Source of the DNA: Alphaproteobacteria bacterium
GTDB taxonomy: Bacteria > Myxococcota_A > UBA796 > CAJQPC01
Length of the DNA stretch: 31,126 nt
Direction of reading: 5' to 3'
Assembly: GCA_020632795.1 (NCBI GenBank)
Contig: JACKEV010000010.1
Span: forward strand, 1 to 31,126
The position numbers and the translations under genes were made by a program. Under the pieces are notes generated by a model, which was not told the origin of the DNA, searched no databases, and saw only the letters and a program-made list of their open reading frames with translations. Of the stretch, positions 2,943-28,163 are shown in pieces (position 1 is the stretch's first letter; each line of letters begins with the position of its first letter).

Positions 2943-2946
2943 CGCC

Positions 2947-8688: not shown

Positions 8689-8820
8689 TGAGGTCTCTCC
8701 AGTCAAGAAGTGAGCAGGTTCCCAGGTCTGGCCTGACTTTATCGGACACATCCCCTCGGACCATTGCGACCCTCTTACTGTAAGAGGTGGTGAAAGAGCC
8801 AACCCACCTCAAAAAGCGAC

Positions 8821-10425: not shown

Positions 10426-11627
10426 CCGCCCCCCTCGACCTGCCCCCCCGCCCCACGCTGCCCCTCTCCGAAGGCGGATGGGGAGACGTCCCCGGCGCCC
10501 GCTGCGGGGTCGCCGCCGGCCGCATCAAGGCCACCGCTGACCGGGACGACGTGGTCGTCCTGCACGCCCCGGGGGTGGCCGCCGCCGTCACCACCGCCAG
10601 CACCGCCGCCGCCGCGCCCTGCCTGTGGACCCGCGCGCGGGTGCCCGGCCCCGTCGAGGCCGTCGTCGTCAACGCCGGCAACGCCAACGCCGCCACCGGA
10701 GCCCGAGGCGAGGCCGACTGCGCCGACACCGCCGCCACCGTCGCCGCCGCCCTCTCCTGCGACCCCGACGCCGTGCTGGTCTGCTCCACCGGGGTCATCG
10801 GGGTGCCGCTGCCGATGGAGCGCCTGCTGCCCGCGGTCCGTCAGGCGGTGGACACCCTGGGCGAGCCCGGGGCCCGCGCCGCCCGCGCCATCCTCACCAC
10901 CGACCTCGTCCCCAAGGAGGTCCTGATCCGACACGAGGGGGTGACCGTCGGCGGCATGGCCAAGGGCTCCGGCATGATCCACCCGGGCATGGCCACGATG
11001 CTGGCCTTCCTGGTGACCGACGCGCAGGTGCCCCCTGGCCCCCTCCAGGATCTCCTGACGGCGGTCACCGCCCGGACCTTCAACGCGATCTCGGTGGACG
11101 GCTGCATGTCCACCAACGACACGCTGATCCTCCAGTCCACCGGGCTCGGCCCCGTGCGGGCGCCCGGCGCGCCGGGGTGGGCGGGCTTCGCGCGCGCCGT
11201 GGAGGTCGCCGCGGCCGAGCTGGCCCGCGCCATCGCCCGGGACGGAGAGGGCGCCACCACCCTCATCGAGGCCGTGGTCGCCGGCACCCCCAGCGACGCC
11301 GCCGCCCGCGAGGGCGCCCGCGCCGTGGTCTCCTCCCACCTGCTCAAGGCCGCCATCGCCGGGCGGGACCCCAACTGGGGGCGGGTCGTGGGGGCGCTCG
11401 GCGCGGCCGGGATCCCCGACCTGGAGCACCTCGACCTCGACTTCGCGGGCGTCCCGGCGCTGCGCGACGGGCAGCCGGTGGACTGGGACGAGGCCGCCGC
11501 CTCCGCCGCGCTGGACGCCCCCGAGATCCGGATCGCCTGCCGCTTGCCCGGCCCGGGGCTGGGGCGGGCGTGGGGCTGTGATTTGACCGAGCAGTACGTG
11601 AGGATCAATGCGGACTACCGAAGCTGA
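10422..11627 (+). CDS. argJ: Bifunctional ornithine acetyltransferase / N-acetylglutamate synthase
   Basis: GTG start at 10422. Conserved autoproteolytic ATML motif ([13 protein letters not shown]). The N-terminal part of track ORF 10257..11627 is a spurious extension. Confidence 0.85.
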
Positions 11628-12429
11628 CGCGGGAACCGTCGTCGTCAAGTACGGCGGCGCGGCGATGAAGGACGCGGGGCTCTCCGAGACCCTCATGCGG
11701 GATCTGGTGGCGCTCCAGGCCCGCGGCGCCCGGGTCGTGCTGGTGCACGGCGGGGGCGCCGCGGTGACGGAGATCGGGCGGCGCCTGGGCCTGGAGGCCC
11801 GCTTCGTGGACGGCCTGCGGGTCACCGACCCCGAGACGATGCGGGTCGCCCAGCGGGTGCAGGTCGGCGAGATCGGGCGCGGCATCGTGGCCGCCATCGG
11901 GCGGGCCGGCGGCCGGGCGCTGGGTCTCTCCGGCCACGACCTCGGGGGTTGGCTGCGCGGCGCGCGCCGGCAGCACATCCACCGGCAGACCGGCGAGCCC
12001 GTGGACCTGGGCCGGGTCGGGGACATCTGCGCGGTCGACGCCGCCGCCCTCAGCGCCGTGCTCGACCAGGGCTGGATCCCGGTGGTGGCGCCGGTCGCGG
12101 TCGACGCCGACTTCGAGGCCCTCAACGTGAACGCCGACAGCGTCGCCACCGCCGTGGCTGCCGCCCTCCAGGCCGACCGTCTCGTGCTGCTCACCGACGT
12201 CGACGGGGTGCGCGGCGCCGACGGCCAGCCGGCCCGCGCGGTCTCCGCGGACACCCTGCGGGCCTGGATCGCGTCCGGCGTGGTCTCCGGCGGCATGATC
12301 CCCAAGGCCGAGGGCTGCCTGGACGCCCTGGCCGGCGGGGTCGGCGCGGTCTCCATCGCCGACGGACGGGTCCCCCACGCCCTGCTGGGCGCCTTCTCGG
12401 CGAGCGGCGGCACGGAGGTCCACCCATGA
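11608..12429 (+). CDS. argB: Acetylglutamate kinase
   Basis: VVKYGG amino-acid kinase N-terminal motif and GGMIPK near the C-terminus. Overlaps the argJ end by 20 bp. Confidence 0.85.
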   Translation: MRTTEADAGTVVVKYGGAAMKDAGLSETLMRDLVALQARGARVVLVHGGGAAVTEIGRRLGLEARFVDGLRVTDPETMRVAQRVQVGEIGRGIVAAIGRAGGRALGLSGHDLGGWLRGARRQHIHRQTGEPVDLGRVGDICAVDAAALSAVLDQGWIPVVAPVAVDADFEALNVNADSVATAVAAALQADRLVLLTDVDGVRGADGQPARAVSADTLRAWIASGVVSGGMIPKAEGCLDALAGGVGAVSIADGRVPHALLGAFSASGGTEVHP

Positions 12430-13556
12430 CCGCCGAAGACGCACCCTTCCTGAACACCTACGCCCGCTTCCCGGTGGAGCTGGTCGCCGGCCAGGGCTGC
12501 CGGGTCCGCGACGCGCAGGGGCGCTGGTACCTGGACGCCTGCGCCGGCATCGCCGTGATGGCGCTGGGTCACCGCCACCCGACCGTGGCCGCGGCGGTGC
12601 AGCGCCAGCTCGACCAGCTCTGGCACACCTCCAACCTCTTCCACGTGCCCGTGCAGTCCGCCTTCGCCGAGCGCCTCGCCGGCAGCATGGGCGGCGGCGC
12701 GGTGTTCCTGTGCAACTCCGGCGCCGAGGCCAACGAGGCCGCCGTCAAGCTCGCCCGCAAGCACCACTGGCTGCGCGACGACCCCCGCGAGGAGGTCCTC
12801 GTCCTGGAGGGAGCCTTCCACGGCCGCACCCTCATGACCCTCGCGATGACCCCGCGCCCGGCGTACCAGGCGCCCTTCGGCCCGCTGCCCGGCGGGGTCC
12901 GGGTCGCCGCCCCCGAGGACGCCGCCACCGCGGTCAGCGCGCGCACCGCCGCGGTGTTCGTGGAGCCGGTCCAGGGGGAGGGCGGCTGCCGCTCCCTGCT
13001 GCACCTGCTGCCGGGCCTGCGGGAGGCCTGCGACGCCCACGGCGCCCTGCTCGTGTACGACGAGATCCAGTGCGGCCTGGGGCGCACCGGGCGGTGGTGC
13101 CACGCCCCCGCCCCCGACCTGACCACCTTCGCCAAGGCGCTGGGCGGCGGGCTCCCCCTGGGGGCGCTGCTCACCAACCCAGCGCTGTCCGGGACCTTCA
13201 CGCCCGGCGACCACGGCTCCACCTTCGGGGGCAACCCCCTGGCCTGCGCGGCGGGCCTGGCCACCCTCGACGTCATCCTGGCCGAGGACCTGCCGGCCCG
13301 CTGCGGGCGGCTGGGGGCGCGGCTGCGGGCGGGCCTGGAGGCCACCGGCGCGTCGGTCACCGGCGAGGGCCTGATGCTGGCGGCGCACCTGGGCCGCCCG
13401 GCCGGGCCGGTCCTGACGGCGATGCGGGAGCGCGGCGTGCTCACCTGCGGCGCCGGGCCTGAGTCGGTGCGCTTCCTGCCCCCCTTCGTCCTCTCGGAGG
13501 CCGAGGCGGACGAACTGCTGGCCGTGTTCGCCGAGGCGGTGTCGGTCACCGCGTAA
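12426..13556 (+). CDS. argD: Acetylornithine aminotransferase (class III PLP)
   Basis: ATG overlaps the argB stop (ATGA). The PLP-lysine region DEIQCGLGRTG...TFAKALGGGLP is typical of ArgD. Track ORF 11949..13556 carries a spurious N-terminal extension. Confidence 0.85.
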   Translation: MTAEDAPFLNTYARFPVELVAGQGCRVRDAQGRWYLDACAGIAVMALGHRHPTVAAAVQRQLDQLWHTSNLFHVPVQSAFAERLAGSMGGGAVFLCNSGAEANEAAVKLARKHHWLRDDPREEVLVLEGAFHGRTLMTLAMTPRPAYQAPFGPLPGGVRVAAPEDAATAVSARTAAVFVEPVQGEGGCRSLLHLLPGLREACDAHGALLVYDEIQCGLGRTGRWCHAPAPDLTTFAKALGGGLPLGALLTNPALSGTFTPGDHGSTFGGNPLACAAGLATLDVILAEDLPARCGRLGARLRAGLEATGASVTGEGLMLAAHLGRPAGPVLTAMRERGVLTCGAGPESVRFLPPFVLSEAEADELLAVFAEAVSVTA

Positions 13557-13601
13557 GGGGCGCCCCTCCGAGGCTCGGATAGGCTTCACGCAGGAGGTCC
13601 C

Positions 13602-19022: not shown

Positions 19023-20495
19023 TCAGCGCATCCCGAACCCCCGCAGCTTGCGCTTGAGGGTGTTCCGGTCGATGCCCAGCGCCCGCGCCGCCTGGGAGAG
19101 GTTCCCGTCGAGCTGCGCCAGGGCGTCCGCGATCGCGGCGCGCTCGACCTCAGCCACCCGCTCGACCAGCGGGCGCAGCGGTCCACCCAGGGGCGCCACC
19201 GCCACCCGCACCGGGGCCCCCCGGATCTCCGGGGAGAGGTCCTCCACCGCCACCACATCCTCGCAGAACACCCCCCAGCGGGTCACCTCGGCCCGCAGCT
19301 CCCGCACGTTGCCCGGCCACCGCCAGGACCGCAGCGCGTCCCAGGCCGCCCGCGTCAGCTTCAGGGGCCGCCCCAGCTCCTCCATGAAGTGGGCCACCAG
19401 CCGCTCCAGGTCGCCGCCCCGATCCCGCAGCGCCGGGACCTCGAGGGTCGCGCCCCGCAGCCGATAGTAGAGGTCCTCCCGAAACCGGCCGGCGCGCACC
19501 TCGGACGCCAGGTCCCGGTGGGTCGCCGCGACCACCCGCACGTCCACCCGCACCGGCCGCTCGCCGCCCACCCGACGCAGCTCGCCCTCCTGCAACACCC
19601 GCAGGAGCTGGACCTGCACCCGGGGCGGCATCTCGCCCACCTCATCCAGGAACAGCGTGCCGCCGTCCGCCACCTCGAACAGGCCCCGGCGCCGCCCGGA
19701 GGCCCCGGTGAAGGCCCCCTTCTCGTGCCCGAACAGCTCGCTGGAGAGCACGCCCTCGGCGAACGCCCCGCAGTTCTCGGCGATGAACGGCCCTTCAGCC
19801 CGCGCGCTGGCGGAGTGGATCGCGCGGGCGACCAGCTCCTTGCCCGTCCCGGTCTCCCCATACACCAGCACCGGCACCTCGCTGGGCGCCACCCGGGCCA
19901 GCCTGCGTCGAAGCGTCTGCATGGGCGCGCTCTCGCCGATCATGCGGTCGCTGTCGGCGCGGCGCTCGGCGCGCAGCCGGACCAGCTCCTCGCGCAGGGC
20001 GCGGATCTCCGGGAAGCCCTCGATCTCCAGCCGCACCTCCCGGATGGCCCGGGGGTGGGGGTCTGGTACGAAGGCCGGCGGGATGACCTGGAGCATGCGC
20101 GCCCGGAGCAGCCCCGCCTGCACCAGGATGACCCACAGGGTCTGGGACTGGGGCGTGCCTGCCGAGAGCACCACGTCCAGCTCGGGCGCGCCGCGCAGCT
20201 CCTCGACCAGGGGCGCCAGCCCGAAGAACAGCGCCTCGTGGTCGGTTGGATCCGCCAGATCGATGAGCCGCAGCTCCGCGCGCAGGCCACGCTCCCGCAT
20301 CCGCGCCACCAGGCCCCGAGCGCCCTCCAGCCCCGAGGGGATGCTCAGCACCAGGACCCGGTCGTAGCGCCCCTGGCTCTCCGGCTGGTCGAGGAGCCGC
20401 AGCACAGGCCCCTGATCCGCCGGGTTGTGCGGGAGGGGAGGGCCGGGGACCGGGCGAGGGGCGCCGCGGTCGGACCAGGTGAGCAGCGTGGCCAT
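19023..20495 (-). CDS. rtcR: Sigma54-dependent transcriptional regulator with non-receiver N-terminal domain, RtcR-like (CARF-AAA+-HTH)
   Basis: AAA+ sigma54-interaction domain (GETGTGKE, GAFTGA, ESELFGHEKGAFTGA) and C-terminal Fis-type HTH. The N-terminal ~190 aa lack the receiver D-D-K pattern; the segment DVVLSAGTPQSQTLWVILVQAGLLRARMLQVIPP resembles the CARF domain of RtcR as remembered. ATG at 20495; the track ORF extension to 20861 is not supported. Confidence 0.7.
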   Translation of the reverse strand: MATLLTWSDRGAPRPVPGPPLPHNPADQGPVLRLLDQPESQGRYDRVLVLSIPSGLEGARGLVARMRERGLRAELRLIDLADPTDHEALFFGLAPLVEELRGAPELDVVLSAGTPQSQTLWVILVQAGLLRARMLQVIPPAFVPDPHPRAIREVRLEIEGFPEIRALREELVRLRAERRADSDRMIGESAPMQTLRRRLARVAPSEVPVLVYGETGTGKELVARAIHSASARAEGPFIAENCGAFAEGVLSSELFGHEKGAFTGASGRRRGLFEVADGGTLFLDEVGEMPPRVQVQLLRVLQEGELRRVGGERPVRVDVRVVAATHRDLASEVRAGRFREDLYYRLRGATLEVPALRDRGGDLERLVAHFMEELGRPLKLTRAAWDALRSWRWPGNVRELRAEVTRWGVFCEDVVAVEDLSPEIRGAPVRVAVAPLGGPLRPLVERVAEVERAAIADALAQLDGNLSQAARALGIDRNTLKRKLRGFGMR

Positions 20496-20533
20496 GACCC
20501 CCGAGCCATAGCACAGCCGTTGTCCGCGAGCTT

Positions 20534-20573
20534 GGCCCCCGGGGCTCGGCCCCCGGGGCTCGGCCCCCGGGCC
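20534..20573. repeat. Tandem 14-bp repeat GGCCCCCGGGGCTC (about 2.8 copies) upstream of rtcR
   Basis: Read directly from the sequence; it lies in the rtcR 5' region. Confidence 0.6.
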
Positions 20574-20674: not shown

Positions 20675-20702
20675 TTGCACTCTGTCGGTAATGTGGTAAA
20701 AC
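20675..20702 (+). promoter_or_regulatory. Sigma70-like promoter TTGCAC-16-TGgTAAAAC (extended -10)
   Basis: It sits in an unusually AT-rich patch facing the tRNA array. Two GC hairpins follow at 20902-20929 and 20935-20968. Confidence 0.35.
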
Positions 20703-21084: not shown

Positions 21085-21103
21085 GTCTGTATTGAATACA
21101 GAC
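21085..21103. promoter_or_regulatory. Perfect palindrome GTCTGTATT-G-AATACAGAC next to a consensus TTGACA (21123-21128) upstream of the tRNA array
   Basis: 9-bp arms with no mismatch, which is rare in a 70% GC genome. The -35 consensus hexamer is 20 bp downstream and about 100 bp upstream of the first tRNA. Confidence 0.4.
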
Positions 21104-21227
21104 CTCACACAGTTCCTCTTCTTTGACATCGCGAATACGCATGGAGTTTCACGGGTCCGCGTCGCGCCAATCACGGCGGTCGTCAGCGGCGCGGGCCCAC
21201 CCCCCTCTCACCCAGGAGAGGGGTTGT

Positions 21228-21303
21228 GCGCCCGTAGCCAAGCGGTCCATAAGGCACCGGACTCTTAATCCGGCGATCGTGGGTTCGAATCCCACCGGGT
21301 GTA
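21228..21303 (+). tRNA. tRNA-Lys(CTT)
   Basis: Cloverleaf: acceptor GCGCCCG/CGGGTGT (two G-U pairs), anticodon arm CCGGA-CTCTTAA-TCCGG, T-arm GTGGG-TTCGAAT-CCCAC. Confidence 0.75.
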
Positions 21304-21391
21304 CCTCGGTTCTCCACGGGAGATGCTCGCGCAGCGCTCCACGGGAGATGCCTGTCCTGAGCCTCTGCGACCCCGCGTCGCCGAGGCCTGT

Positions 21392-21468
21392 CGGGGTGTA
21401 GCTCAGCCTGGGAGAGCGGCTGGTTCGGATCCAGCAGGTCGTCGGTTCAAATCCGGCCACCCCGACCA
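21392..21468 (+). tRNA. tRNA-Pro(CGG)
   Basis: Acceptor CGGGGTG/CACCCCG, anticodon loop TTCGGAT, T-arm GTCGG-TTCAAAT-CCGGC, encoded CCA. Confidence 0.85.
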
Positions 21469-21520
21469 TCACACGCCTGGAGCGGCCGGTTCTGCACCGG
21501 TCGGTCGCTCCGGGCTCCCT

Positions 21521-21592
21521 GCGGCCGTAGCTCAAAGGTAGAGCACCGTCTTGCCATGGCGGAGGTTGCGCGTTCGAGTCGCGTCGGCCGCT
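21521..21592 (+). tRNA. tRNA-Gly(GCC)
   Basis: Acceptor GCGGCCG/CGGCCGC, anticodon loop TTGCCAT, T-arm GCGCG-TTCGAGT-CGCGT. Confidence 0.85.
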
Positions 21593-21616
21593 TTCGGATC
21601 CACGCAGGGTCCTCGT

Positions 21617-21693
21617 CCGGGTGTAGTTCAGATGCGGAGAACGCCGCGCTGGGAGCGCGGAGGTCGCTGGTTCAAGTCCAGCCACTCGGACCA
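21617..21693 (+). tRNA. tRNA-Pro(GGG)
   Basis: Acceptor CCGGGTG/CACTCGG (one G-U), anticodon loop CTGGGAG, T-arm GCTGG-TTCAAGT-CCAGC, CCA encoded. Confidence 0.8.
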
Positions 21694-21703
21694 TCCCCCT
21701 CAA

Positions 21704-21787
21704 GGCGACGTAGCCAAGCGGAAAGGCACTCGGCTGCAACCCGGGGAGCGCGGCTCCTCCGGAGCGGGTTCAATCCCGCCGTCGCCT
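21704..21787 (+). tRNA. tRNA-Cys(GCA)-like, 84 nt, with a 14-nt insertion before the T-arm and a 6-nt T-loop (variant or pseudogene)
   Basis: Identical to canonical copy 21946..22016 in acceptor (GGCGACG/CGTCGCC, U73), D-arm and anticodon arm (loop CTGCAAC). It carries CTCCTCCGGAGCGG inserted between the variable loop and T-stem, and TTCAAT where the canonical copy has TTCAAAT. Confidence 0.55.
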
Positions 21788-21824
21788 CTTGTTCATGTTC
21801 CAACTGACCCATCACACTTCTCAA

Positions 21825-21908
21825 GGCGACGTAGCCAAGCGGAAAGGCACTCGGCTGCAACCCGGGGAGCGCGGCTCCTCCGGAGCGGGTTCAATCCCGC
21901 CGTCGCCT
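21825..21908 (+). tRNA. tRNA-Cys(GCA)-like, second identical 84-nt copy with the 14-nt insertion
   Basis: Exact 121-bp tandem duplicate (gene plus spacer) of 21704..21824. Confidence 0.55.
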
Positions 21909-21945
21909 CTTGTTCATGTTCCAACTGACCCATCACACTTCTCAA

Positions 21946-22016
21946 GGCGACGTAGCCAAGCGGAAAGGCACTCGGCTGCAACCCGGGGAGCGCGGGTTCA
22001 AATCCCGCCGTCGCCT
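21946..22016 (+). tRNA. tRNA-Cys(GCA), canonical 71 nt
   Basis: Acceptor GGCGACG/CGTCGCC with U73 discriminator (the Cys identity element), anticodon loop CTGCAAC, 4-nt variable loop, T-arm GCGGG-TTCAAAT-CCCGC. Confidence 0.8.
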
Positions 22017-22023
22017 CTTGTCT

Positions 22024-22100
22024 CAAGGTGTAGCTCAGGCGAGGAGAGCGGCTGGTTTGGAACCAGCAGGCCGCCGGTTCGAGTCCGGCCACCTTGACCA
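22024..22100 (+). tRNA. tRNA-Pro(TGG)
   Basis: Acceptor CAAGGTG/CACCTTG, anticodon loop TTTGGAA, T-arm GCCGG-TTCGAGT-CCGGC, CCA encoded. Confidence 0.85.
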
Positions 22101-22116
22101 TCTCTGACGACCACAT

Positions 22117-22188
22117 GCGTCCGTAGCTCAATGGTAGAGCGCTGCCCTCCCAAGGCAGAGGTTGCGCGTTCGAGTCGCGTCGGTCGCT
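22117..22188 (+). tRNA. tRNA-Gly(CCC)
   Basis: Acceptor GCGTCCG/CGGTCGC (one T-T mismatch), anticodon loop CTCCCAA, T-arm GCGCG-TTCGAGT-CGCGT. Confidence 0.75.
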
Positions 22189-22195
22189 TCCCTAC

Positions 22196-22266
22196 AGGGT
22201 CGAGCGCTGGTTGTGTCAGGCGGCCTCCAAAGTCGCCCTGCGAGAGTTCGAATCTCTCCGGCCCTG
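22196..22266 (+). tRNA. tRNA-Trp(CCA) with irregular D-arm
   Basis: Anticodon loop CTCCAAA and T-arm/acceptor GAGAG-TTCGAAT-CTCTC-CGGCCCT-G closely resemble bacterial tRNA-Trp (A1-U72, G73). The D-arm does not fold cleanly by eye. Confidence 0.55.
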
Positions 22267-22285
22267 CTCCTTCATCCAGCACCAC

Positions 22286-22359
22286 AGGCGAGTGGCGCAA
22301 TCGCGGAGCGCACCGCTCTCACACAGCGGAGGTTGCGGGTTCGAGTCCCGCCTCGCCTA
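22286..22359 (+). tRNA. tRNA-Val(CAC)
   Basis: Acceptor AGGCGAG/CTCGCCT, D-stem GCGC/GCGC, anticodon loop CTCACAC, T-arm GCGGG-TTCGAGT-CCCGC. Confidence 0.8.
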
Positions 22360-22389
22360 TCATCCCCAACAAGCCCAGAGGAGGTCCCC

Positions 22390-23484
22390 ATGTCCTCTTT
22401 CGCCGTCAAGGTCGTGCGGCTCCGCGTCGAGCCACACCACAACGCAGATGCCCTCGAGCTGGCGCGCGTGGGCGACTACCTCTCCGTGGTCCGCAAGGGC
22501 CAGTTCAGGACCGGCGACCTCGCCGCCTACATCCCCGAGCAGGCCATCGTCCCCGACGAGCTGCTCGAGGAGATGGGGCTCACGGGGCGCCTGGCCGGCA
22601 AGTTCGCCAACCGCGTCAAGGCCATCCGGCTGCGGGGCGTGCTGTCCCAGGGCCTCTGCTACCCGGCGCGGCCGGAGTGGCCCGAGGGCCTCGACGTGAC
22701 CGAGACCCTGGGCATCGTCAAGCACGAGCCCCCGGTCCCCACGTCGATGGACGGCCAGGCCTGGGCGGCCGGGCTGGACCGCTGCCTGCGCTACGACATC
22801 GAGAACATCAAGCGTTTCCCCGATGTCCTGGCCGACGGCGAGCCGGTCGTCTTCACCGAGAAGATCCACGGCACCTGGACCCAGCTCGGCCTCGTGCCCG
22901 AGGCCTGGGCCCACGCCGAGCACGGTCGGCTGGTCGTCAGCTCGAAGGGGCTCGCCGCGCGCGGCCTGGCGTTCATGCCGAACGCCCAGGAGAACGAGCG
23001 AAACCTCTACCTCCGGGTCGCCCGCACCCTGGACATCGAGGCCCGCCTGGAGGCGGCCTTCAGCGGCACGCTGAGCGCCGACGCGCCGGTCTTCGTCCTC
23101 GGCGAGACCTTCGGCGCGGGCGTCCAGGACCTCGCCTACGGCGCGAACGTCGGCCACGACGCCAGCCTCGGCTTCCGGGTGTTCGACGTCTACGTCGGCG
23201 CGGTCGGCCAGGGGCACTTCCTGGACGACACCGAGCTGGAGGCCGCGTGCCGTGCGCTCAGCCTGGAGCGTGTCCCGGTGGTCTACCGGGGTCCGTTCAG
23301 CCGCGAGGCGCTCGCCGAGCACACCGACGGCCGCGAGCAGGTCAGCGGAGAGGGCAAGCACATCCGAGAGGGTGTGGTCGTCCGACCCGTCCACGAGCGG
23401 CGCCACGACGAGCTGGGCCGCGTCCAGCTCAAGTCGGTGTCCGAGCGCTACCTGCTCCGCAAGGGTGGGACCGAGTACAACTGA
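22390..23484 (+). CDS. ATP-dependent RNA ligase (Rnl2/Rnl5-like nucleotidyltransferase) with N-terminal tRNA-binding OB fold (Myf/Trbp111/CsaA-like)
   Basis: ATG at 22390 with RBS AGAGGAGG. N-terminal VKVVRLRVEPHHNADAL...RLRGVLSQGLC matches the HPNAD...KLRGV.S.GM.C pattern of the tRNA-binding OB domain. FTEKIHGTW is the KxHG lysine-adenylylation motif I of RNA ligases. A hairpin follows at ~23489-23525. The part of the track ORF 5' of 22390 reads through tRNA genes and is rejected. Confidence 0.7.
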   Translation: MSSFAVKVVRLRVEPHHNADALELARVGDYLSVVRKGQFRTGDLAAYIPEQAIVPDELLEEMGLTGRLAGKFANRVKAIRLRGVLSQGLCYPARPEWPEGLDVTETLGIVKHEPPVPTSMDGQAWAAGLDRCLRYDIENIKRFPDVLADGEPVVFTEKIHGTWTQLGLVPEAWAHAEHGRLVVSSKGLAARGLAFMPNAQENERNLYLRVARTLDIEARLEAAFSGTLSADAPVFVLGETFGAGVQDLAYGANVGHDASLGFRVFDVYVGAVGQGHFLDDTELEAACRALSLERVPVVYRGPFSREALAEHTDGREQVSGEGKHIREGVVVRPVHERRHDELGRVQLKSVSERYLLRKGGTEYN

Positions 23485-23561
23485 GACGGCAGCGCGCGGC
23501 GCGGAGACGGGGCCCCCTCGCCTCCGCGCCCCAACCCCGATAGGAGGGGCGGTGAGGATGA

Positions 23562-23634
23562 GGGTTCGTAGCTCAAGCGGTAGAGCAACGGCCTTTTAAG
23601 CCGGCGGTTCCGGGTTCGAGTCCCGGCGGACCCA
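23562..23634 (+). tRNA. tRNA-Lys(TTT)
   Basis: Acceptor GGGTTCG/CGGACCC (one G-U), anticodon loop CTTTTAA, T-arm CCGGG-TTCGAGT-CCCGG. Confidence 0.8.
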
Positions 23635-23662
23635 CCTCCCTCCTGCCCATCGGGGACCCTGT

Positions 23663-23736
23663 TCCCTGGTCGTTCAACGGCAGGACACCTGGCTCTGAAC
23701 CAGGAGATGGAGGTTCGAGTCCTCCCTGGGGGACCA
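23663..23736 (+). tRNA. tRNA-Gln(CTG)
   Basis: Anticodon arm CCTGG-CTCTGAA-CCAGG, T-arm GGAGG-TTCGAGT-CCTCC, CCA encoded. The acceptor TCCCTGG/CTGGGGG needs three G-U pairs. Confidence 0.6.
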
Positions 23737-23768
23737 TCCGCTCGCGTCGGGCGTCATCGACGCAACAT

Positions 23769-23845
23769 GGGGCAGTAGCTCAACTGGGAGAGCGTCGGGC
23801 TGGCAGTCCGAAGGTTGTGGGTTCAATCCCCATCTGTCTCCACCA
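23769..23845 (+). tRNA. tRNA-Ala(GGC)-like with non-canonical acceptor (extra nt in 3' strand)
   Basis: 5' GGGGCAG, D-arm TAGCTCAACTGGGAGAGC, anticodon loop CTGGCAG, T-arm GTGGG-TTCAATC-CCCAT. The 3' strand CTGTCTCC-A-CCA is one nt longer than the CTGCTCC needed to pair with G3-U70. Confidence 0.55.
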
Positions 23846-23877
23846 TCCGCTCGCGTCGGGCGTCATCGACGCAACAT

Positions 23878-23967
23878 GGGGCAGTAGCTCAACTGGGAGA
23901 GCGTCGGGCTGGCAGTCCGAAGGTTGTGGGTCCTCCAGACCGGGTTCACTCCCATCTGTCTCCACCA
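23878..23967 (+). tRNA. tRNA-Ala(GGC)-like, 90 nt, with a 14-nt insertion before the T-arm and a 6-nt T-loop (variant or pseudogene)
   Basis: Identical to 23769 copy through the anticodon arm. It carries TCCTCCAGACCGGG inserted and TTCACT in place of TTCAATC. This is the same pair of changes seen in the Cys-like copies. Confidence 0.5.
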
Positions 23968-23997
23968 TCCGCTCGCGTCGGGCGTCATCGACGCAAC

Positions 23998-24074
23998 ATG
24001 GGGCAGTAGCTCAACTCGGGAGAGCGCCCGGTTCGCATCCGGGAGGTTGTGGGTTCAAGTCCCATCTGTCTCCA
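23998..24074 (+). tRNA. tRNA-Ala(CGC)-like (same non-canonical acceptor)
   Basis: Anticodon arm CCCGG-TTCGCAT-CCGGG, T-arm GTGGG-TTCAAGT-CCCAT. It shares the 5' spacer and acceptor of the 23769 copy. Confidence 0.55.
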
Positions 24075-24107
24075 CCATCCGCTCGCGTCGGGCGTATACG
24101 GCGCAAC

Positions 24108-24180
24108 ATGGGACGGTAGCTCAATCGCGGAGAGCGTCCGGCTTGCACCCGGGAGGCTGCGGGTTCGAATCCCGCCCGCT
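24108..24180 (+). tRNA. tRNA-Ala(TGC)
   Basis: Acceptor GGGACGG/CCGCTCC with G3-U70 and one A-C mismatch, anticodon loop CTTGCAC, T-arm GCGGG-TTCGAAT-CCCGC. The end coordinate is approximate. Confidence 0.65.
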
Positions 24181-24195
24181 CCACTCGCGGCAGAA

Positions 24196-24228
24196 GGGGC
24201 GGCGGCGCATGGGGAGCGCCGCCGCCCC
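24196..24228 (+). terminator. Perfect 13-bp-stem hairpin GGGGCGGCGGCGC-ATGGGGA-GCGCCGCCGCCCC inside the tRNA array
   Basis: Read directly from the sequence. No T-run. It lies between tRNA-Ala(TGC) and tRNA-Gln(TTG). Confidence 0.35.
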
Positions 24229-24237
24229 ACGGGGTCT

Positions 24238-24309
24238 GCGGGGATGGCCAAGCGGCAAGGCGCCGGGCTTTGAACTCGGAGAGCGTGGGTTCGATCCCCA
24301 CTCCCCGTT
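24238..24309 (+). tRNA. tRNA-Gln(TTG)
   Basis: D-arm GCC-AAGCGGCAA-GGC, anticodon arm CCGGG-CTTTGAA-CTCGG, T-arm GTGGG-TTCGATC-CCCAC, acceptor GCGGGGA/TCCCCGT. Confidence 0.7.
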
Positions 24310-24329
24310 CCTCCCCTTCCCATCTCCCC

Positions 24330-24403
24330 GCCGGTGTAGCTCAGTCGGCCAGAGCGCCTGACTCGTAATCAGGAGGTCGCCGGTTCGACTCCGGCCACCG
24401 GCT
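24330..24403 (+). tRNA. tRNA-Thr(CGT)
   Basis: Acceptor GCCGGTG/CACCGGC, anticodon loop CTCGTAA, T-arm GCCGG-TTCGACT-CCGGC. Confidence 0.85.
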
Positions 24404-24411
24404 CTCCATGC

Positions 24412-24483
24412 GCCCGGGTAGCTCAGTGGAAGAGCACCGCACTGGTAACGCGGAGGTCGGGAGTTCGATTCTCCCCCCGGGCA
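24412..24483 (+). tRNA. tRNA-Thr(GGT)
   Basis: Acceptor GCCCGGG/CCCGGGC, anticodon loop CTGGTAA, T-arm GGGAG-TTCGATT-CTCCC. Confidence 0.8.
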
Positions 24484-24487
24484 TTGT

Positions 24488-24560
24488 GCCCGCTTGGCTC
24501 AACAGGCAGAGCATCCGTCTTGTAAGCGGGAGGTTGCGAGTTCGATTCTCGCGGCGGGCA
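24488..24560 (+). tRNA. tRNA-Thr(TGT)
   Basis: Acceptor GCCCGCT/GGCGGGC, anticodon loop CTTGTAA, T-arm GCGAG-TTCGATT-CTCGC. Confidence 0.8.
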
Positions 24561-24569
24561 CTACCTCAT

Positions 24570-24642
24570 GCAGGCGTAGCTCACTTGGAAGAGCGTCGGG
24601 TTTCCACCCCGAAGGTCGCCGGTTCGACCCCGGTCGCCTGCT
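24570..24642 (+). tRNA. tRNA-Gly(TCC)
   Basis: Acceptor GCAGGCG/CGCCTGC, anticodon loop TTTCCAC, T-arm GCCGG-TTCGACC-CCGGT. Confidence 0.8.
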
Positions 24643-24689
24643 CTCACGAGACCCCATGCGTGTTCGCGATGTCACCTCAGGAGGCGGTC

Positions 24690-25277
24690 ATGGACAGCGT
24701 ATTGTTGCTGAACGCAGACTACACCCCATTGAGCGTGCTCGGCTGGCAGCGGGCGGTGAACCTGCTGCTCGACGAGAAGGCCAACGTGGTCGTCGAGTAC
24801 GCCGGTCGCGTCATCCGCTCCCAGTCGTTCGACCTGCCCTGGCCGGCGGTCGTCGCGCTGCACCGGTACCGGAAGCACAGCGAGCGCGTCCGGTTCAACC
24901 GCATCAGCGTGATCGCCCGGGACAGCGCGTCCTGCCAGTACTGCGGGGTCACCCCGAGGGGCCGCAACGGCCGCCTGGCCATCGACGAGCTGACCCTCGA
25001 CCACGTCGTGCCCCGCGCGCGCGCGGTCGACGGCCGGGTCCGGCTGCCGTGGAGCGGCCGTCGGGTGCCGGTGACCTCCTGGGAGAACGTCGTCATCGCC
25101 TGCGAGCCCTGCAACCACCGCAAGGCCGACCGCCTGCCCGAGGAGGCCGGCATGACCCTCCGGCGGCCGCCACACCGCCCGTCGTCCAGGGAGATCCTGC
25201 ACGCGAACCTGCTCCGGGCGAGGATCCCGGAGGAGTGGCGGATGTTCCTGCCCGAGGCGACGCTCCCGCAGAGCTGA
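24690..25277 (+). CDS. HNH endonuclease
   Basis: ATG at 24690 with RBS CAGGAGG; an alternative ATG lies at 24669. HNH signature CQYCG...LDHVVPRAR...N...CEPCNHRKAD (Cys4 zinc plus H-N-H). An intrinsic terminator follows. Confidence 0.75.
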   Translation: MDSVLLLNADYTPLSVLGWQRAVNLLLDEKANVVVEYAGRVIRSQSFDLPWPAVVALHRYRKHSERVRFNRISVIARDSASCQYCGVTPRGRNGRLAIDELTLDHVVPRARAVDGRVRLPWSGRRVPVTSWENVVIACEPCNHRKADRLPEEAGMTLRRPPHRPSSREILHANLLRARIPEEWRMFLPEATLPQS

Positions 25278-25283
25278 GACCAC

Positions 25284-25320
25284 GCGCCCCCCTTGACGGG
25301 GGGCGCGCTTGGTTGTATTT
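25284..25320 (+). terminator. Intrinsic terminator: 9-bp stem GCGCCCCCC-TTGAC-GGGGGGCGC followed by GCTTGGTTGTATTTGTTG
   Basis: Perfect stem plus T-rich tail directly after the HNH stop. Confidence 0.6.
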
Positions 25321-25334
25321 GTTGCTCAGGCAAC
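25319..25334. promoter_or_regulatory. Palindromic operator TTGTTGC-TCAG-GCAACA (copy 1) immediately upstream of marR
   Basis: The inverted repeat GTTGC/GCAAC ends 4 nt before the marR ATG. The identical 16-mer recurs at 25806-25821. Confidence 0.5.
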
Positions 25335-25337
25335 ATC

Positions 25338-25787
25338 ATGAAAGACCGCTTCTCCGACACCTCCAGCATCGACAAGGCGACGGCCTACCGGCTGCTGCGG
25401 GTGGCCCGGCTGCTCCGCCACGACCTGGCGGGCGCGCTGGCCCGGTGGGACCCGGACCTCACGCCGGAGCAGTACTTCGTCCTCTTCCGGCTGCACGAGC
25501 GCGACGGGCGCGCCCAGCGCGAGCTGGTGGACCCGGTGCTGGACGACCGGGCCAACATCACCCGCCTGGTGGACAAGCTCCAGGCGCGGGGGCTGGTCGA
25601 GCGGCGCCCGGACCCGGACGACGGGCGGCGCAACCAGGTGTGGCTCACCGACGCCGGCCGCGCCCTCTTCGACACGCTGCTGCCCCGCATCCCCGCCGAG
25701 CGGCGCCGCCTGTTCGGCGACCTCGCCCCCGGCGAGCTGGACGCGCTGCACGACCTGCTGGACCGACTGGAGGATCGCCTGGGGTGA
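25338..25787 (+). CDS. MarR-family transcriptional regulator
   Basis: 150 aa with a winged-helix region (LTPEQYFVLFRLHERDGRAQRELVDPVLDDRANITRLVDKLQARGLVERRPDPDDGRRNQVWLT) typical of MarR. Confidence 0.75.
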   Translation: MKDRFSDTSSIDKATAYRLLRVARLLRHDLAGALARWDPDLTPEQYFVLFRLHERDGRAQRELVDPVLDDRANITRLVDKLQARGLVERRPDPDDGRRNQVWLTDAGRALFDTLLPRIPAERRRLFGDLAPGELDALHDLLDRLEDRLG

Positions 25788-25805: not shown

Positions 25806-25821
25806 TTGTTGCTCAGGCAAC
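25806..25821. promoter_or_regulatory. Palindromic operator TTGTTGC-TCAG-GCAAC (copy 2) upstream of the NTF2-like gene
   Basis: Exact 16-mer repeat of 25319-25334, 14 bp upstream of the ATG at 25836. Confidence 0.5.
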
Positions 25822-25835
25822 TTTTTGGAGGACCC

Positions 25836-26195
25836 ATGCCGCACGACGACATCGCCCGCACCCTGCACCGCTGGACCGAGGCCACCGCCGCCCAGGACGC
25901 CGACGCCCTGGCGGAGGTCTTCCACCCCGCCGCCGTGCAGGTGGTGGTCACCCCCGAGCGCGAGCTGGTGCTGACGACGGCGGACTACCTGGACATGCTG
26001 CGGGCGAAGCGGATCGGCGGCCACGCGGCGCAGGTGGTCGTCCACAGCGTGGAGGCCGCGGGCGCGGTGGCCGCCGCGCGGGTGAGTCGGACCACCGCGA
26101 AGGTCCGCTTCGACGACGCCGTGTCCCTGCTCAAGGTGGACGGGCAGTGGCGGGTGACCGGGGCGGCCGTGACGGTGACGCCGCTCGAGGGCTGA
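25836..26195 (+). CDS. NTF2-like / SnoaL-like small protein (hypothetical)
   Basis: 119 aa, RBS GGAGGA. The length and an alpha+beta pattern ending ...DGQWRVTGAAVTV are typical of the NTF2-like superfamily. Confidence 0.45.
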   Translation: MPHDDIARTLHRWTEATAAQDADALAEVFHPAAVQVVVTPERELVLTTADYLDMLRAKRIGGHAAQVVVHSVEAAGAVAAARVSRTTAKVRFDDAVSLLKVDGQWRVTGAAVTVTPLEG

Positions 26196-26281
26196 TGCGT
26201 TTCACATCATCGGTGCTTCCTGAATCACTACGTGTGATGCATAGCGCATCATGACCGGCTGAAACAGCGCGCTGGAGCGGT

Positions 26282-26297
26282 TGGCACGGCGCGTGCT
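26282..26297 (+). promoter_or_regulatory. Sigma54 (-24/-12) promoter TGGCACG-GCGC-GTGCT upstream of rtcB
   Basis: TGGCACG-N4-TTGCW consensus matched except for one position. GG and GC are spaced correctly. It lies about 30 bp upstream of the rtcB ATG. Inverted repeats ATCAC-TACGT-GTGAT and TGATGC-ATAGC-GCATCA lie 30-70 bp further upstream. Confidence 0.55.
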
Positions 26298-26325: not shown

Positions 26326-27540
26326 ATGTGCACCCTGCCTGTCCACGCCCGCATCCTCGCCCGCGACGACGTCCGCGTTGAAGGCGACGCCGTCGATCAG
26401 CTCGCCCGCGTGGCGGGCTTCCCCGGCTGCGTGCGGGCTGTCGGCCTGCCGGACCTGCACCCCGGGCCAGGCATCCCCATCGGCGCGGCCTTCGCGTTCC
26501 GCGACGCGGTGTGGCCCGGTCTGGTGGGCGGAGACGCCGGCTGCGGCGCGCGGCTGGTGGCCCTCTCCAAGACCCGGATGCGCGGGGACGCCCTGGAGCG
26601 CCGCGTGCGGGAGTGGACCGAGGGCCCGCCGCTGCCGGACGCCGACCCCGACGCGCTGCTGGCGGCGGTCTGGGCCCGGGGCCCGCGCGGCCTGGCGGAG
26701 GTCCCGGGCGTGCCCGCCTCCCTGGCGGCGCTCGCCGAGGTCGAGGCCCCCGAGCCGGATGGCCCGGTCGCTCCCCTGCCCTTCGAGGGTCGGTTCGGGG
26801 CGTCCCTGGGCACGGTGGGTGGGGGCAACCACTTCGCCGAGATCAGCGAGGTCACCGAGGTGGCCGACAAGCCGCGCGCGCGGGCCCTGGGCCTCCGGCA
26901 CGGCGGGACGGTGGTGCTGGTCCACTCCGGGTCCCGGGGTCTGGGCAAGGCCCTGGCCGATCGGTGGGGCCTGCGGGCGCTGACCGGCGCCGACCAGGCG
27001 CAGTACCTGGGCGAGCTGGCCGGCGCGCTGCGGTTCGCCCGCGCCAACCGGCTGGTCATCGCGTGGAGGCTGCTGGGCGCCCTGGGCTCCGCGCGCCCCT
27101 CCCGCGTCGCCCATCAGGTCGACCTCATCCACAACAGCGTGGTCCGGGGCACCCTGGGCGGGCAGGGGGTATGGGTCCACCGCAAGGGCAGCGCCCCGGC
27201 CGAGGCCGGCCAGCCCACCGTGGTGCTGGGCAGCCGGGGCACGCCGAGCTGGGTGATGGAGGGCACCGGCTCGGAGGACAGCCTGGCCTCGGTGGCCCAC
27301 GGCGCGGGCCGGGCGATGGGGCGCAGCGAGGCGGTGGCCAAGCTCAAGCCGGCCATGACCCGGAAGTCCCTGCTGCGGACCGCGTCAGGGGGGCGGGTCA
27401 TCTGCGACGACCCCGAGCTGCTCTACGCCGAGCACCCCAAGGCCTACAAGCCCATCGGGCCGGTGGTCGACAGCCTGGTGGAGGCCGGGCTGGCCCGGCC
27501 AGTGGCGGCGCTGCTGCCGCAGTTCACGGTGAAGCGATGA
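26326..27540 (+). CDS. rtcB: RtcB-family RNA 3'-phosphate/5'-OH ligase
   Basis: 404 aa. Conserved RtcB metal- and GTP-site motifs DAGCGAR (D-x-GCG), GGGNHFAE (GxGNHF) and HGAGR (HNHAGR-like). ATG at 26326 with GGAG 8 nt upstream. Confidence 0.8.
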   Translation: MCTLPVHARILARDDVRVEGDAVDQLARVAGFPGCVRAVGLPDLHPGPGIPIGAAFAFRDAVWPGLVGGDAGCGARLVALSKTRMRGDALERRVREWTEGPPLPDADPDALLAAVWARGPRGLAEVPGVPASLAALAEVEAPEPDGPVAPLPFEGRFGASLGTVGGGNHFAEISEVTEVADKPRARALGLRHGGTVVLVHSGSRGLGKALADRWGLRALTGADQAQYLGELAGALRFARANRLVIAWRLLGALGSARPSRVAHQVDLIHNSVVRGTLGGQGVWVHRKGSAPAEAGQPTVVLGSRGTPSWVMEGTGSEDSLASVAHGAGRAMGRSEAVAKLKPAMTRKSLLRTASGGRVICDDPELLYAEHPKAYKPIGPVVDSLVEAGLARPVAALLPQFTVKR

Positions 27541-28163
27541 GGCGGCTGTTGCTGGTGTCCGCCGGCACCGGGCCGGTGGAGGTGCGGCGCTTCGTGGCGC
27601 TGCTGGCGGCCTGGTTGGCCGAGGCCTGCGCGTCGCGGGGGCTCGCGGTGCGCTCGGTGACCGTGAGCGGTGAGGACGAGGCGCCGCGGTCGGTGACGCT
27701 GGAGGTCTCGGGCGGGGCGTCGCTGGAGGGCCTGCTGGGGACCCACGCGCTGGTGGCCCGCAGCGCGACCCGGGGCCGCCGCGCCCGCAAGCGCTGGTAC
27801 GCCGGAGTCAGCGCGCACGACGCGCCCGTCGGGGCTGCGGTGGAGGTCGACCCCTCGGAGGTGAGCTTCACCGCGTGCCGGGCGGGGGGCCCCGGCGGGC
27901 AGCACGTCAACACCACCGCCAGCGCGGTGTGGGCCACCCATGGGCCCACCGGGCTGCGGGTACGTGTCGCCAGCGAGCGCTCCCAGCACGCCAACCGGAG
28001 GATCGCCCTGGCGCGGCTGGCGGAGGTGCTCGCCTCGCGGGACGCTGAGAAGCGCGCGGTGGGCCGGGACCGGCGATGGCGCTCCCACCATCGCCTGGAA
28101 CGGGGGCGTCCGGTGCGGACCTGGGGGCTGGATCCCGGTGGGGCTGCGCTGGTGGAGCGCTGA
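27537..28163 (+). CDS. prfH: Peptide chain release factor homologue PrfH (RF-H)
   Basis: 208 aa. GGQ motif (GGPGGQHVNTTASAV) in a short class-I RF-like fold. The start overlaps the rtcB stop (ATGA), the canonical rtcB-prfH coupling. Confidence 0.75.
   Translation: MRRLLLVSAGTGPVEVRRFVALLAAWLAEACASRGLAVRSVTVSGEDEAPRSVTLEVSGGASLEGLLGTHALVARSATRGRRARKRWYAGVSAHDAPVGAAVEVDPSEVSFTACRAGGPGGQHVNTTASAVWATHGPTGLRVRVASERSQHANRRIALARLAEVLASRDAEKRAVGRDRRWRSHHRLERGRPVRTWGLDPGGAALVER

Follow-up and report, generated by a model that had tools for sequence, protein, structure and literature searches.

Organization of the locus

The stretch of DNA analyzed here (31,126 nucleotides, hereafter the window) contains a dense array of tRNA genes lying between a gene for an RtcR-like sigma-54 activator and an rtcB-prfH operon. 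The array is divided into two blocks by a gene for an ATP-dependent RNA ligase and is followed by a gene for an HNH endonuclease. The tRNA genes, the ligase and the HNH gene are together referred to as the cassette, and the main features of the locus are as follows.

19023-20495, minus strand: RtcR-like sigma-54 enhancer-binding protein of 490 amino acids (Pfam Sigma54_activat, AAA_lid_14 and HTH_8), with its true start at M123 of a longer open reading frame (ORF)
21228-22359, plus strand: tRNA block 1, Lys-CTT, Pro-CGG, Gly-GCC, Pro-GGG, Cys-GCA (three genes), Pro-TGG, Gly-CCC, Trp-CCA and Val-CAC (ARAGORN, Rfam, cloverleaf parse)
22390-23484, plus strand: ATP-dependent RNA ligase of the DRB0094/Rnl5 family (DraRnl type), 364 amino acids (Pfam, TIGR02306, match to NgrRnl in the PDB)
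23562-24643, plus strand: tRNA block 2, Lys-TTT, Gln-CTG, Ala-GGC, Ala-GGC (long form), Ala-CGC, Ala-TGC, Gln-TTG, Thr-CGT, Thr-GGT, Thr-TGT and Gly-TCC (ARAGORN, Rfam, cloverleaf parse)
24690-25277, plus strand: array-associated HNH endonuclease, 195 amino acids (Pfam HNH)
26282-26297, plus strand: sigma-54 promoter TGGCACGGCGCGTGCT of the GG-N10-GC type, 5' of rtcB, with one mismatch to the consensus
26326-27540, plus strand: RtcB RNA ligase of the "release factor-associated" type, 404 amino acids (Pfam RtcB; start as in the gene call of contig L115, see below)
27537-28163, plus strand: PrfH-like release-factor homologue (TIGR03072, 154 bits against a cut-off of 167)

The tRNA genes were called as the union of ARAGORN and the Rfam tRNA model over the window. 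ARAGORN finds 21 genes between 21228 and 24643, every one on the plus strand. The Rfam model likewise finds 21, gaining a second Ala-GGC gene with an insertion (23878-23963, 42 bits) and losing a weak Trp gene (22196-22267). The union amounts to 22 tRNA or tRNA-like genes on the same strand, one fewer than the 23 announced in a first-pass annotation of this DNA, whose own list also totals 22 and gives every anticodon correctly, from the three Pro genes to the single Val-CAC. The array serves nine amino acids (Lys, Pro, Gly, Cys, Trp, Val, Gln, Ala and Thr) and, by the ARAGORN calls, includes the complete range of isoacceptors in four codon boxes (Pro, Ala, Thr and Gly). Spacers between tRNA genes measure 4-88 nt, the single exception being the 1202-nt gap that holds the ligase gene. 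Internal tandem duplications, also claimed by the earlier annotation, are found by Tandem Repeats Finder as a Cys unit of 121 bp (2.5 copies, 100% identity) and an Ala unit of 109 bp (3.9 copies). The 88-nt spacer between Lys-CTT and Pro-CGG contains two copies of a 15-nt perfect direct repeat, CTCCACGGGAGATGC, spaced 25 nt from start to start (21312-21351).

The array had also been described as about 60% GC and AT-richer than its flanks. The tRNA blocks measure 65-66%, against 72% for the window and 71% for the embedded ligase and the HNH gene. The dip is confined to the tRNA blocks and therefore reflects the tRNA genes and does not indicate foreign DNA. Low GC was thus rejected as a sign of foreign origin, the dip being the normal composition of tRNA genes within a high-GC genome; GC content and GC3 of the cassette are near the host values.

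The embedded RNA ligase and the HNH endonuclease

The ligase gene, which the first-pass annotation did not mention, fills the 1.2-kb gap between the tRNA blocks and starts 30 nt past Val-CAC. Its product combines an RNA_ligase domain (PF09414) with a PHA02142 OB domain (PF21189), corresponding to an N-terminal OB-like and a nucleotidyltransferase domain, and scores 242 bits against NCBIfam TIGR02306 (cut-off 151). The best match in the PDB is the Naegleria nick-sealing ligase NgrRnl (N-domain match E = 4e-12). NgrRnl seals 3'-OH/5'-PO4 nicks in duplex RNA, a property of NgrRnl and DraRnl (PMC4408790). Motif I (EKIHGT, with its lysine), EG and LKS are invariant in 17 ligase sequences. The source of the DNA, a metagenome-assembled genome with a protein 100% identical to the ligase, is labelled Alphaproteobacteria, yet every close homologue of the ligase belongs to Nannocystaceae or Myxococcota.

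The association of this ligase with tRNA genes recurs independently of the window array. In five more Nannocystaceae-like assemblies, a tRNA-Gln(CTG)/tRNA-Gln(TTG) pair lies directly 5' of the ligase, at the following positions.

Gln-pair/ligase loci: L001 3142-3293; L002 436-709; L003 4317-4531; L082 9713-9917; L084 9634-9906

Among viral contigs encoding the ligase family, 12 of 29 carry tRNA genes at most 8 kb away, and in one of them (L086) a Glu tRNA and three Pro tRNAs come after the ligase. At 61% identity, the closest viral counterpart of the window ligase lies on a contig of 52% GC.

Several observations on these ligase loci stand apart from the array. The Gln-pair loci share a promoter-like element and a leader hairpin (GCCGCCTGGGG...CCCCAGGCGGC), and their two Gln "bodies" exchange anticodons from genome to genome. 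Three AT-rich large-phage contigs with a ligase of the family (L093, L095 and L097) carry one or two tRNAs of the amber suppressor type (anticodon CTA) a few kb away from that gene, which suggests phages with stop-codon reassignment. A natural fusion places a short HNH domain at the N-terminus of the ligase (P0038), and in two Myxococcota contigs (L006 2000-3808 and L008 1070-2815) an HNH gene of the array type directly follows the ligase, with no tRNAs. This fusion and adjacency hint at a functional pairing of nuclease and ligase.

The HNH gene starts 46 nt after the last tRNA, bordering the array on its 3' side as the first reading of the sequence had it. Its catalytic residues (Cys4 and D-H/N/N) are invariant among the aligned homologues. 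A metagenome scan with an alignment of the closest homologues as query returned 80 loci; tRNA genes adjoin the HNH gene in 14 of these, and six of the 14 hold 6-23 tRNAs. No ligase was found within 6 kb of the HNH gene in the metagenome loci. By tblastn, the family occurs on plasmids of Nostoc, Tolypothrix and Acaryochloris, on mycobacterial plasmids (including pCBMA213 and those of M. avium) and in large phages, among them Myxococcus phage Mx1. On the plasmid of Tolypothrix PCC 7910 the HNH gene is followed by 16 tRNAs, and in Mx1 two tRNA-Leu genes flank it. Close DNA relatives of the array itself were not found in phage and plasmid collections, where matches were merely of the generic tRNA level. 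In a third myxobacterial genome (L117, 9350-9837), a tandem of Asp-GTC and Phe-GAA repeated three times lies directly 5' of an HNH gene 60% identical to that of the window, and one of the Asp genes is an 87-nt long form. This clade may distribute its arrays among several loci, a possible reason for the restricted set of isotypes.

The rtc setting and conservation of the cassette

A second genome, L081 (GCA_020632815.1), carries the same arrangement. The order there is arginine genes, DUF481, Acs, activator, 12 tRNAs, ligase, 10 tRNAs, HNH, rtcB, prfH, methyltransferase and NAGPA. The L081 array thus has 22 tRNAs, of the same nine isotypes. In both arrays block 1 ends with Cys then Trp, to which the window adds Val, and block 2 spans Lys-TTT to Gly-TCC. 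The proteins of the two loci are 60-80% identical, and the ligase (74%) and the HNH endonuclease (69%) fall within that range. Since the cassette proteins have diverged like those of the flanks and the loci are syntenic, the cassette was already present in the common ancestor of the window genome and L081. A 3.4-kb independent read-assembly contig found via the HNH gene (L115) shows the same orientation as the window.

In two relatives, the rtcR-like activator stands directly divergent from rtcB-prfH; in one of them (L201) the intergenic region measures 247 bp and contains the sigma-54 promoter. As judged from sequence, this junction is the empty site of the cassette. The ligase loci of more than ten Nannocystaceae genomes likewise have no array.

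The start of the activator (20495) was set by alignment with the L081 orthologue. The protein is collinear with NCBIfam RtcR from profile position 71, with a score under the cut-off. Its AAA+ and HTH domains are clear and its N-domain matches PF06956 weakly (E = 0.22); among the homologues of this N-domain, seven carry PF06956 and two are named RtcR family. RtcB scores 268 bits against TIGR03073, just under the cut-off of 272. The rtcB and prfH genes overlap at 27537-27540, and an RF-1 gene directly follows rtcB in L081, in L201 and on the contig of P0254. The sigma-54 promoter of rtcB is conserved in L081 and in the empty-site relative L201.

Some further features of these rtc loci were noted. 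Two neighbouring Rtc systems occupy the P0254 contig: one is rtcR-rtcB-prfH, and the other combines a canonical rtcR, rtcB-rtcA and a gene with a HEPN domain. Inverted repeats of the CATCATGA type lie 5' of the rtcB sigma-54 promoter (window 26195-26260; L201 9840-9890; L081 13780-13900) and may be activator binding sites; the L081 position is an unusual AT-rich stretch of about 130 bp in a genome of 72% GC. A 14-nt unit, GCTYGGCCCCCGGG, occurs in three tandem copies (20530-20571) just 5' of the start codon of the rtcR-like gene.

Turnover of the array tRNAs

Judged by cloverleaf parse and the established tRNA identity rules, most array tRNAs have an intact cloverleaf, U33, a purine at position 37 and the expected discriminator bases, and no deviations were seen in their anticodon loops. 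Between the window and L081, tRNAs with the same anticodon are mostly 66-75% identical (exceptions Lys-TTT, 90%, and Thr-GGT, 81%), in contrast to the flanking proteins with their 60-80%. Canonical Gly-GCC is 96-100% identical across three related genomes, and the array Gly-GCC matches the canonical gene at only 74-75%. The array Trp is aberrant in both genomes, falling under the Rfam gathering score in the window and scoring 30.9 bits in L081. The fast divergence, the distance of Gly-GCC from its canonical copy and the aberrant Trp all agree in pointing, indirectly, to an accessory array and not a housekeeping one.

Stems are kept via compensatory changes, for example in the acceptor and T stems of Trp. 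Because of these changes, and because the nine isotypes and the block skeleton are common to both arrays, the comparison indicates selection on tRNA structure and on the isotype repertoire while individual genes would turn over rapidly. Within one genome, isoacceptors share a body (Ala 78-87%, Gly-GCC/CCC 86%, Pro 82%). Local duplication followed by anticodon change therefore gave rise to the complete isoacceptor sets emphasized by the first-pass annotation.

A 61-nt Gly fragment was also seen. Peculiarities of the L081 array are anticodon-shifted tRNAs (8658-8730 and 11315-11789), including a "Thr-CGT" 96% identical to Lys-CTT genes, Gln-TTG and Gln-CTG genes with Thr/Pro-like bodies, and a gene called Ser-AGA in which position 33 is C and not U.

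Long-form tRNAs

A 13-nt insertion at one common site, in the 5' strand of the T stem, distinguishes seven array tRNAs from three genomes. The long forms are two Cys and one Ala in the window, two Pro and one Val in L081, and one Asp in L117; those of the window are listed here.

21704-21909, plus strand: two identical 85-nt long-form Cys genes with the mini-hairpin CTCC-TCC-GGAG (cloverleaf parse, tandem-repeat search)
23878-23963, plus strand: 86-nt long-form Ala-GGC with the T-stem mini-hairpin GGTC-CTCCA-GACC (Rfam, cloverleaf parse)

All inserts are mini-hairpins in which a 4-bp stem is capped by TCC or CTCCA. The stems are of four different sequences, all perfectly paired (CTCC/GGAG, GGTC/GACC, CCGC/GCGG and GCTG/CAGC). 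A regular-expression search for the motif gave just seven further matches in 4.15 Mb. Clean introns of the archaeal/eukaryal protein-spliced type were rejected: in all long forms, excision of the 13 nt leaves a T loop that starts with G instead of U54 or that has 6 nt. The over-long ARAGORN "tRNAs" of L005, L013, L026 and L061 were also set aside, as false positives within coding DNA.

What are these inserts? They may be scars that protect against the HNH endonuclease, may stem from templated mutation, or may be a variant with a function of its own. The long forms would be unlikely to bind EF-Tu. A far bolder idea is that the mini-hairpins mark a programmed class of array tRNAs, recognized, or excised and resealed, by the co-encoded nuclease and Rnl5 ligase. 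We consider it a long shot; if correct, it would mean that a bacterium edits or splices tRNAs with protein enzymes, or switches them on in a regulated way, and there might be a coupling to the cassette bracketed by inverted repeats (see below).

Inverted repeats and candidate control elements

The tRNA-ligase part of the cassette is bracketed by a pair of inverted repeats, and candidate control elements lie upstream of it and after the HNH gene.

20675-20702, plus strand: sigma-70-like promoter candidate (A-tract, TTGCAC, 16-nt spacer with TGn, TAAAAC), conserved 5' of the arrays in the window, L081 and L117
20935-20968, plus strand: GC-rich hairpin and U-rich tail resembling a terminator or attenuator, 3' of the promoter candidate and 5' of the array (hairpin search)
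21086-21102, no strand assigned: 17-nt perfect palindrome TCTGTATTGAATACAGA, operator candidate (sequence; conservation in L081)
21124-21150, no strand assigned: left arm of the inverted repeat, containing the TTGACA at 21123-21128 (inverted-repeat search)
24648-24674, no strand assigned: right arm of the inverted repeat, separated by 4 nt from the last tRNA and by 16 nt from the HNH start codon (inverted-repeat search)
25283-25307, plus strand: intrinsic-terminator-like hairpin closing the tRNA-ligase-HNH unit (hairpin search)

The arms are 27 nt long and 89% complementary. L081 carries the same pair (24 nt, 92% complementary), differing from the window at three positions, each altered in both arms. 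The repeat is far more conserved than the neighbouring spacer DNA, and its motif has no other occurrence in 2.5 Mb of fetched loci. Flanking repeats of this kind were not found at the tRNA-Gln/ligase modules or at the other HNH arrays. A search of viral contigs gave one match, inside a coding region of a 52% GC contig, which equals the chance estimate of about 1 for a collection assumed to hold about 10^11 bases and was discounted.

The repeats could be a processing stem like that of rRNA flanks, sites of recombination or inversion, the ends of an element, or paired operators. In rRNA operons, flanking complementary sequences form processing stems that are cut by RNase III. The window resembles these operons in that two complementary sequences lying far apart enclose a multi-gene stable-RNA unit and have changed in step between genomes; as RNA, the arms have predicted pairing energies of -45 and -34 kcal/mol. 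It differs from them in the strong sequence conservation of the arms, which would equally suit a protein-binding site, and transcription and cleavage of such a stem are put forward as candidates only. We know of no tRNA array with processing stems of the rRNA-operon type.

On the 5' side of the array, the first-pass annotation had noted a perfect palindrome and a consensus TTGACA. Both are present, and L081 has a version of the palindrome, TTTGTATTCAATACAAA, in which the two arms have changed together. The promoter role of TTGACA did not hold up: no conserved -10 lies at 16-18 nt, and the hexamer is the end of the inverted repeat. A small minus-strand ORF over the palindrome ("MRIRDV...") was dismissed as an artefact of the inverted repeat, because the same reading (ATG CGT NTT CGC GAT GTC) recurs at the right arm in another frame. 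Leader hairpins equivalent to that of the window occur in L081 (8266-8300) and L117. Leader-peptide attenuation was not retained, as the small ORFs 3' of the conserved promoter are dissimilar between genomes. From the common strand of the genes, the short gaps and the terminator after HNH, we infer that the tRNA-ligase-HNH cassette is a single transcription unit.

Relation to known systems

The array belongs to a kind already known, the L-array or tRNA array unit. L-arrays are supernumerary, horizontally spread and linked to HNH genes, with rtcB neighbouring or co-regulated, and translational stress switches on that of Anabaena (Santamaria-Gomez et al., 2021; PMC8421152). Like the L-arrays of cyanobacteria (such as the trn operon of Anabaena sp. 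PCC 7120), the window has a long same-strand array with short spacers, a linked gene of the same HNH family (checked on the Tolypothrix PCC 7910 plasmid) and rtcB in the neighbourhood; duplications, insertions and a few pseudogenes, as well as a patchy distribution among relatives, are also common to both. Unlike them, the window array is chromosomal (Myxococcota-like) rather than plasmid-borne, covers nine amino acids only, and has an embedded Rnl5 ligase, bracketing inverted repeats and an rtcR/rtcB-prfH setting. Its HNH gene lies downstream of the array, whereas that of L-arrays lies upstream, and the 9-nt direct repeats used in L-array regulation were not seen in the window.

Mycobacterial array units contain HNH and RF-1-domain genes (Morgado and Vicente, 2018, PMC5966550; Yano et al., 2026, PMC12803027). 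HNH is the most widespread embedded gene there, the array tRNAs differ from the chromosomal ones, and genes for release-factor domains and ribosome rescue lie in or near some units, as prfH lies near the window array. Those units have 26-40 tRNAs for 19-20 amino acids and reside on plasmids or phages, whereas the window has 22 tRNAs for nine amino acids on a chromosome; no RNA ligase or flanking inverted repeats are reported for them, and the window has both. These array descriptions (PMC8421152, PMC5966550, PMC12803027) mention neither an embedded Rnl5 ligase nor an insertion between rtcR and rtcB-prfH, and a repertoire of nine isotypes, vertical inheritance on a chromosome, flanking inverted repeats and recurrent T-arm hairpins are likewise absent from them.

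The setting of the cassette resembles the Rtc and RtcB2-PrfH systems (PMC7790460, PMC9304027, PMC9223846) in its divergent sigma-54 activator with a putative RtcR-family N-domain, its sigma-54 promoter, and rtcB followed by prfH. It is unlike them in that 5.8 kb (tRNAs, ligase, HNH and two unrelated genes) separates the regulator from the promoter, rtcA is missing from the window, and the N-domain of the activator is by itself weakly RtcR-like.

Phages offer precedents for the combination of spare tRNAs with RNA ligase and HNH genes, in T4, where Pnkp and Rnl1 act against PrrC, and in the tRNA regions of T5 and cluster M phages, which include HNH genes. The window array shares this combination and differs from phage tRNA clusters in having neither phage genes nor anticodon-loop deviations. 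Phage tRNAs evade anticodon nucleases (PMC10264068, PMC11464382).

A probable spare-tRNA and repair module

The reading that we favour, with a probability of about 60%, is that the locus is a chromosomal accessory tRNA operon of the L-array type, in which 22 supernumerary tRNAs, the embedded Rnl5 ligase and the HNH gene, set between the RtcR-like activator and the sigma-54 rtcB-prfH operon, would act as a spare-tRNA and repair module. Under cleavage of the housekeeping tRNAs or impaired translation, the array would furnish substitutes covering nine amino acids. RtcB enzymes join 3'-phosphate and 5'-OH ends. Rnl5 would reseal 3'-OH/5'-phosphate nicks, RtcB would reseal 3'-phosphate/5'-OH ends, and PrfH would release damaged ribosomes. 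Elsewhere, RtcB2-PrfH repairs ribosomes cut by colicin E3 (PMC9304027, PMC9223846). The HNH endonuclease would probably act as a selfish or homing nuclease that also drives array turnover, and the array would evolve via local duplication, anticodon change and decay with its isotype set retained. The first-pass annotation had likened the array to those by which phages and mobile elements compensate for tRNA depletion or cleavage. The likeness stands as regards the HNH family common to phage and plasmid arrays, the RNA-repair neighbours, the empty site and the fast divergence of the tRNAs, and compensation for tRNA cleavage would be a candidate role; mobile-element genes in the flanks are what it lacks.

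Several points weigh against this reading. No plasmid, phage or integrase context is apparent, and two genomes seem to have inherited the locus vertically. In other bacteria the ligase gene mostly stands by itself: no tRNA adjoins it at 75 of 80 genome loci, and it was rejected as an array marker. No sigma-54 promoter with at most three mismatches to the consensus was found on the plus strand 5' of the array, so that control of the array by the RtcR-like activator is a candidate at most. Some members look impaired, namely the three long forms, the Ala genes with a bulged or shifted G3:U70 and the Gln genes without U1-A72 and G73. Coverage is limited to nine amino acids in the window and L081 alike, when described array units usually have 19-20, and the apparent redundancy of the array tRNAs with housekeeping genes is supported indirectly.

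The function of such arrays is debated between codon supply, anti-defence and a stress reserve. In the window, three functions connected with RNA damage are linked physically to the array: Rnl5 inside, RtcB and PrfH beside it and an RtcR-type activator, presumably damage-sensing, on the opposite side. This linkage is kept in two diverged genomes while the tRNA genes turn over, and it ties arrays to repair more tightly than the published examples. It supports the view of arrays as spare parts for translation under ribotoxin attack, plausible for predatory, toxin-exchanging myxobacteria. The locus overturns nothing and offers a compact test system for the spare-parts idea.

Alternative explanations

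The array could instead be a selfish, decaying remnant, an HNH-driven phage or mobile array stranded in the rtc intergenic region that persists by homing and duplication with no benefit to the host. The HNH family common to phage and plasmid arrays, the quick turnover with tandem duplicates, anticodon-shifted copies and fragments (the "Thr-CGT" of L081 and the 61-nt Gly fragment) and the damaged T arms of the long forms would suit a remnant, and the flanking inverted repeats could be element ends. We nonetheless regard it as unlikely, given that the whole cassette is kept in two genomes despite flanking proteins at 60-80% identity, that isotype set and block skeleton are identical in both, that most cloverleaves are preserved by compensatory changes, as in the Trp acceptor and T stems, and that the catalytic residues of ligase and HNH are invariant. 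GC and GC3 are near those of the host, no integrase, phage structural, transfer or transposase gene was found among the scanned ORFs of the window, and the cassette borders are inverted and not direct repeats.

Might the inverted repeats be recombination sites? The 3.5-kb tRNA-ligase segment would then be invertible or excisable, as an on/off switch relative to the upstream promoter and HNH. Repeats of 24-27 nt stand exactly at the cassette borders in both genomes, with three positions changed in both arms and a conservation well above that of the surrounding spacer, and the segment is comparable in size to the invertible G segment of Mu and C segment of P1. Such a switch is nevertheless improbable, with no recombinase gene in the window, a single orientation in both genomes and in L115, and an RNA processing stem or paired operators fitting the repeats equally well.

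A role mainly outside translation seems more doubtful still, whether as toxin decoys, as a source of fragments signalling to the CARF domain of RtcR, or as donors for aminoacyl-tRNA-dependent chemistry. The array adjoins an RtcR-like regulator, and damaged tRNA is what activates RtcR in E. coli (PMC7790460); the array covers a restricted range of isotypes, some identity elements are non-canonical and the long forms would hardly bind EF-Tu. Most members, however, keep the discriminators and anticodon-loop features expected for charging and decoding, no aminoacyl-tRNA-using enzyme is encoded nearby, and 23 of 26 Anabaena array tRNAs are aminoacylated (PMC8421152).

That this is the core housekeeping tRNA operon of the lineage for its nine amino acids is the least credible view, despite the conserved position in L081, the full Pro, Ala, Thr and Gly sets and the mostly well-formed genes, for the array is missing from the same site in two relatives and from more than ten Nannocystaceae ligase loci, its tRNAs are 66-75% identical between genomes against 96-100% for canonical Gly-GCC, its Trp is too aberrant for a sole copy, its isoacceptors share one body, a sign of recent duplication and anticodon change, and Ala-TGC normally resides in rRNA operons.

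Other features of the window

Between the terminator after HNH and rtcB lie a MarR gene (25338-25787) and a SnoaL-like gene (25836-26195). A palindrome, GTTGCTCAGGCAAC, precedes both (25321-25334 and 25808-25821) and is probably the MarR operator. The pair is absent from L081, where a TSP3-repeat gene takes its position. An ORF of 1092 amino acids on the minus strand (10311-13589), antisense to the arginine genes (argB 11608-12429) and with no family match, is almost certainly a high-GC artefact. The remainder of the window consists of ordinary chromosomal genes, for lipoxygenase, MauG/MbnP, MscS, arginine biosynthesis and acetyl-CoA synthetase, and the lipoxygenase gene adjoins those for a MauG-like di-haem peroxidase and an MbnP-family protein (79-3789).

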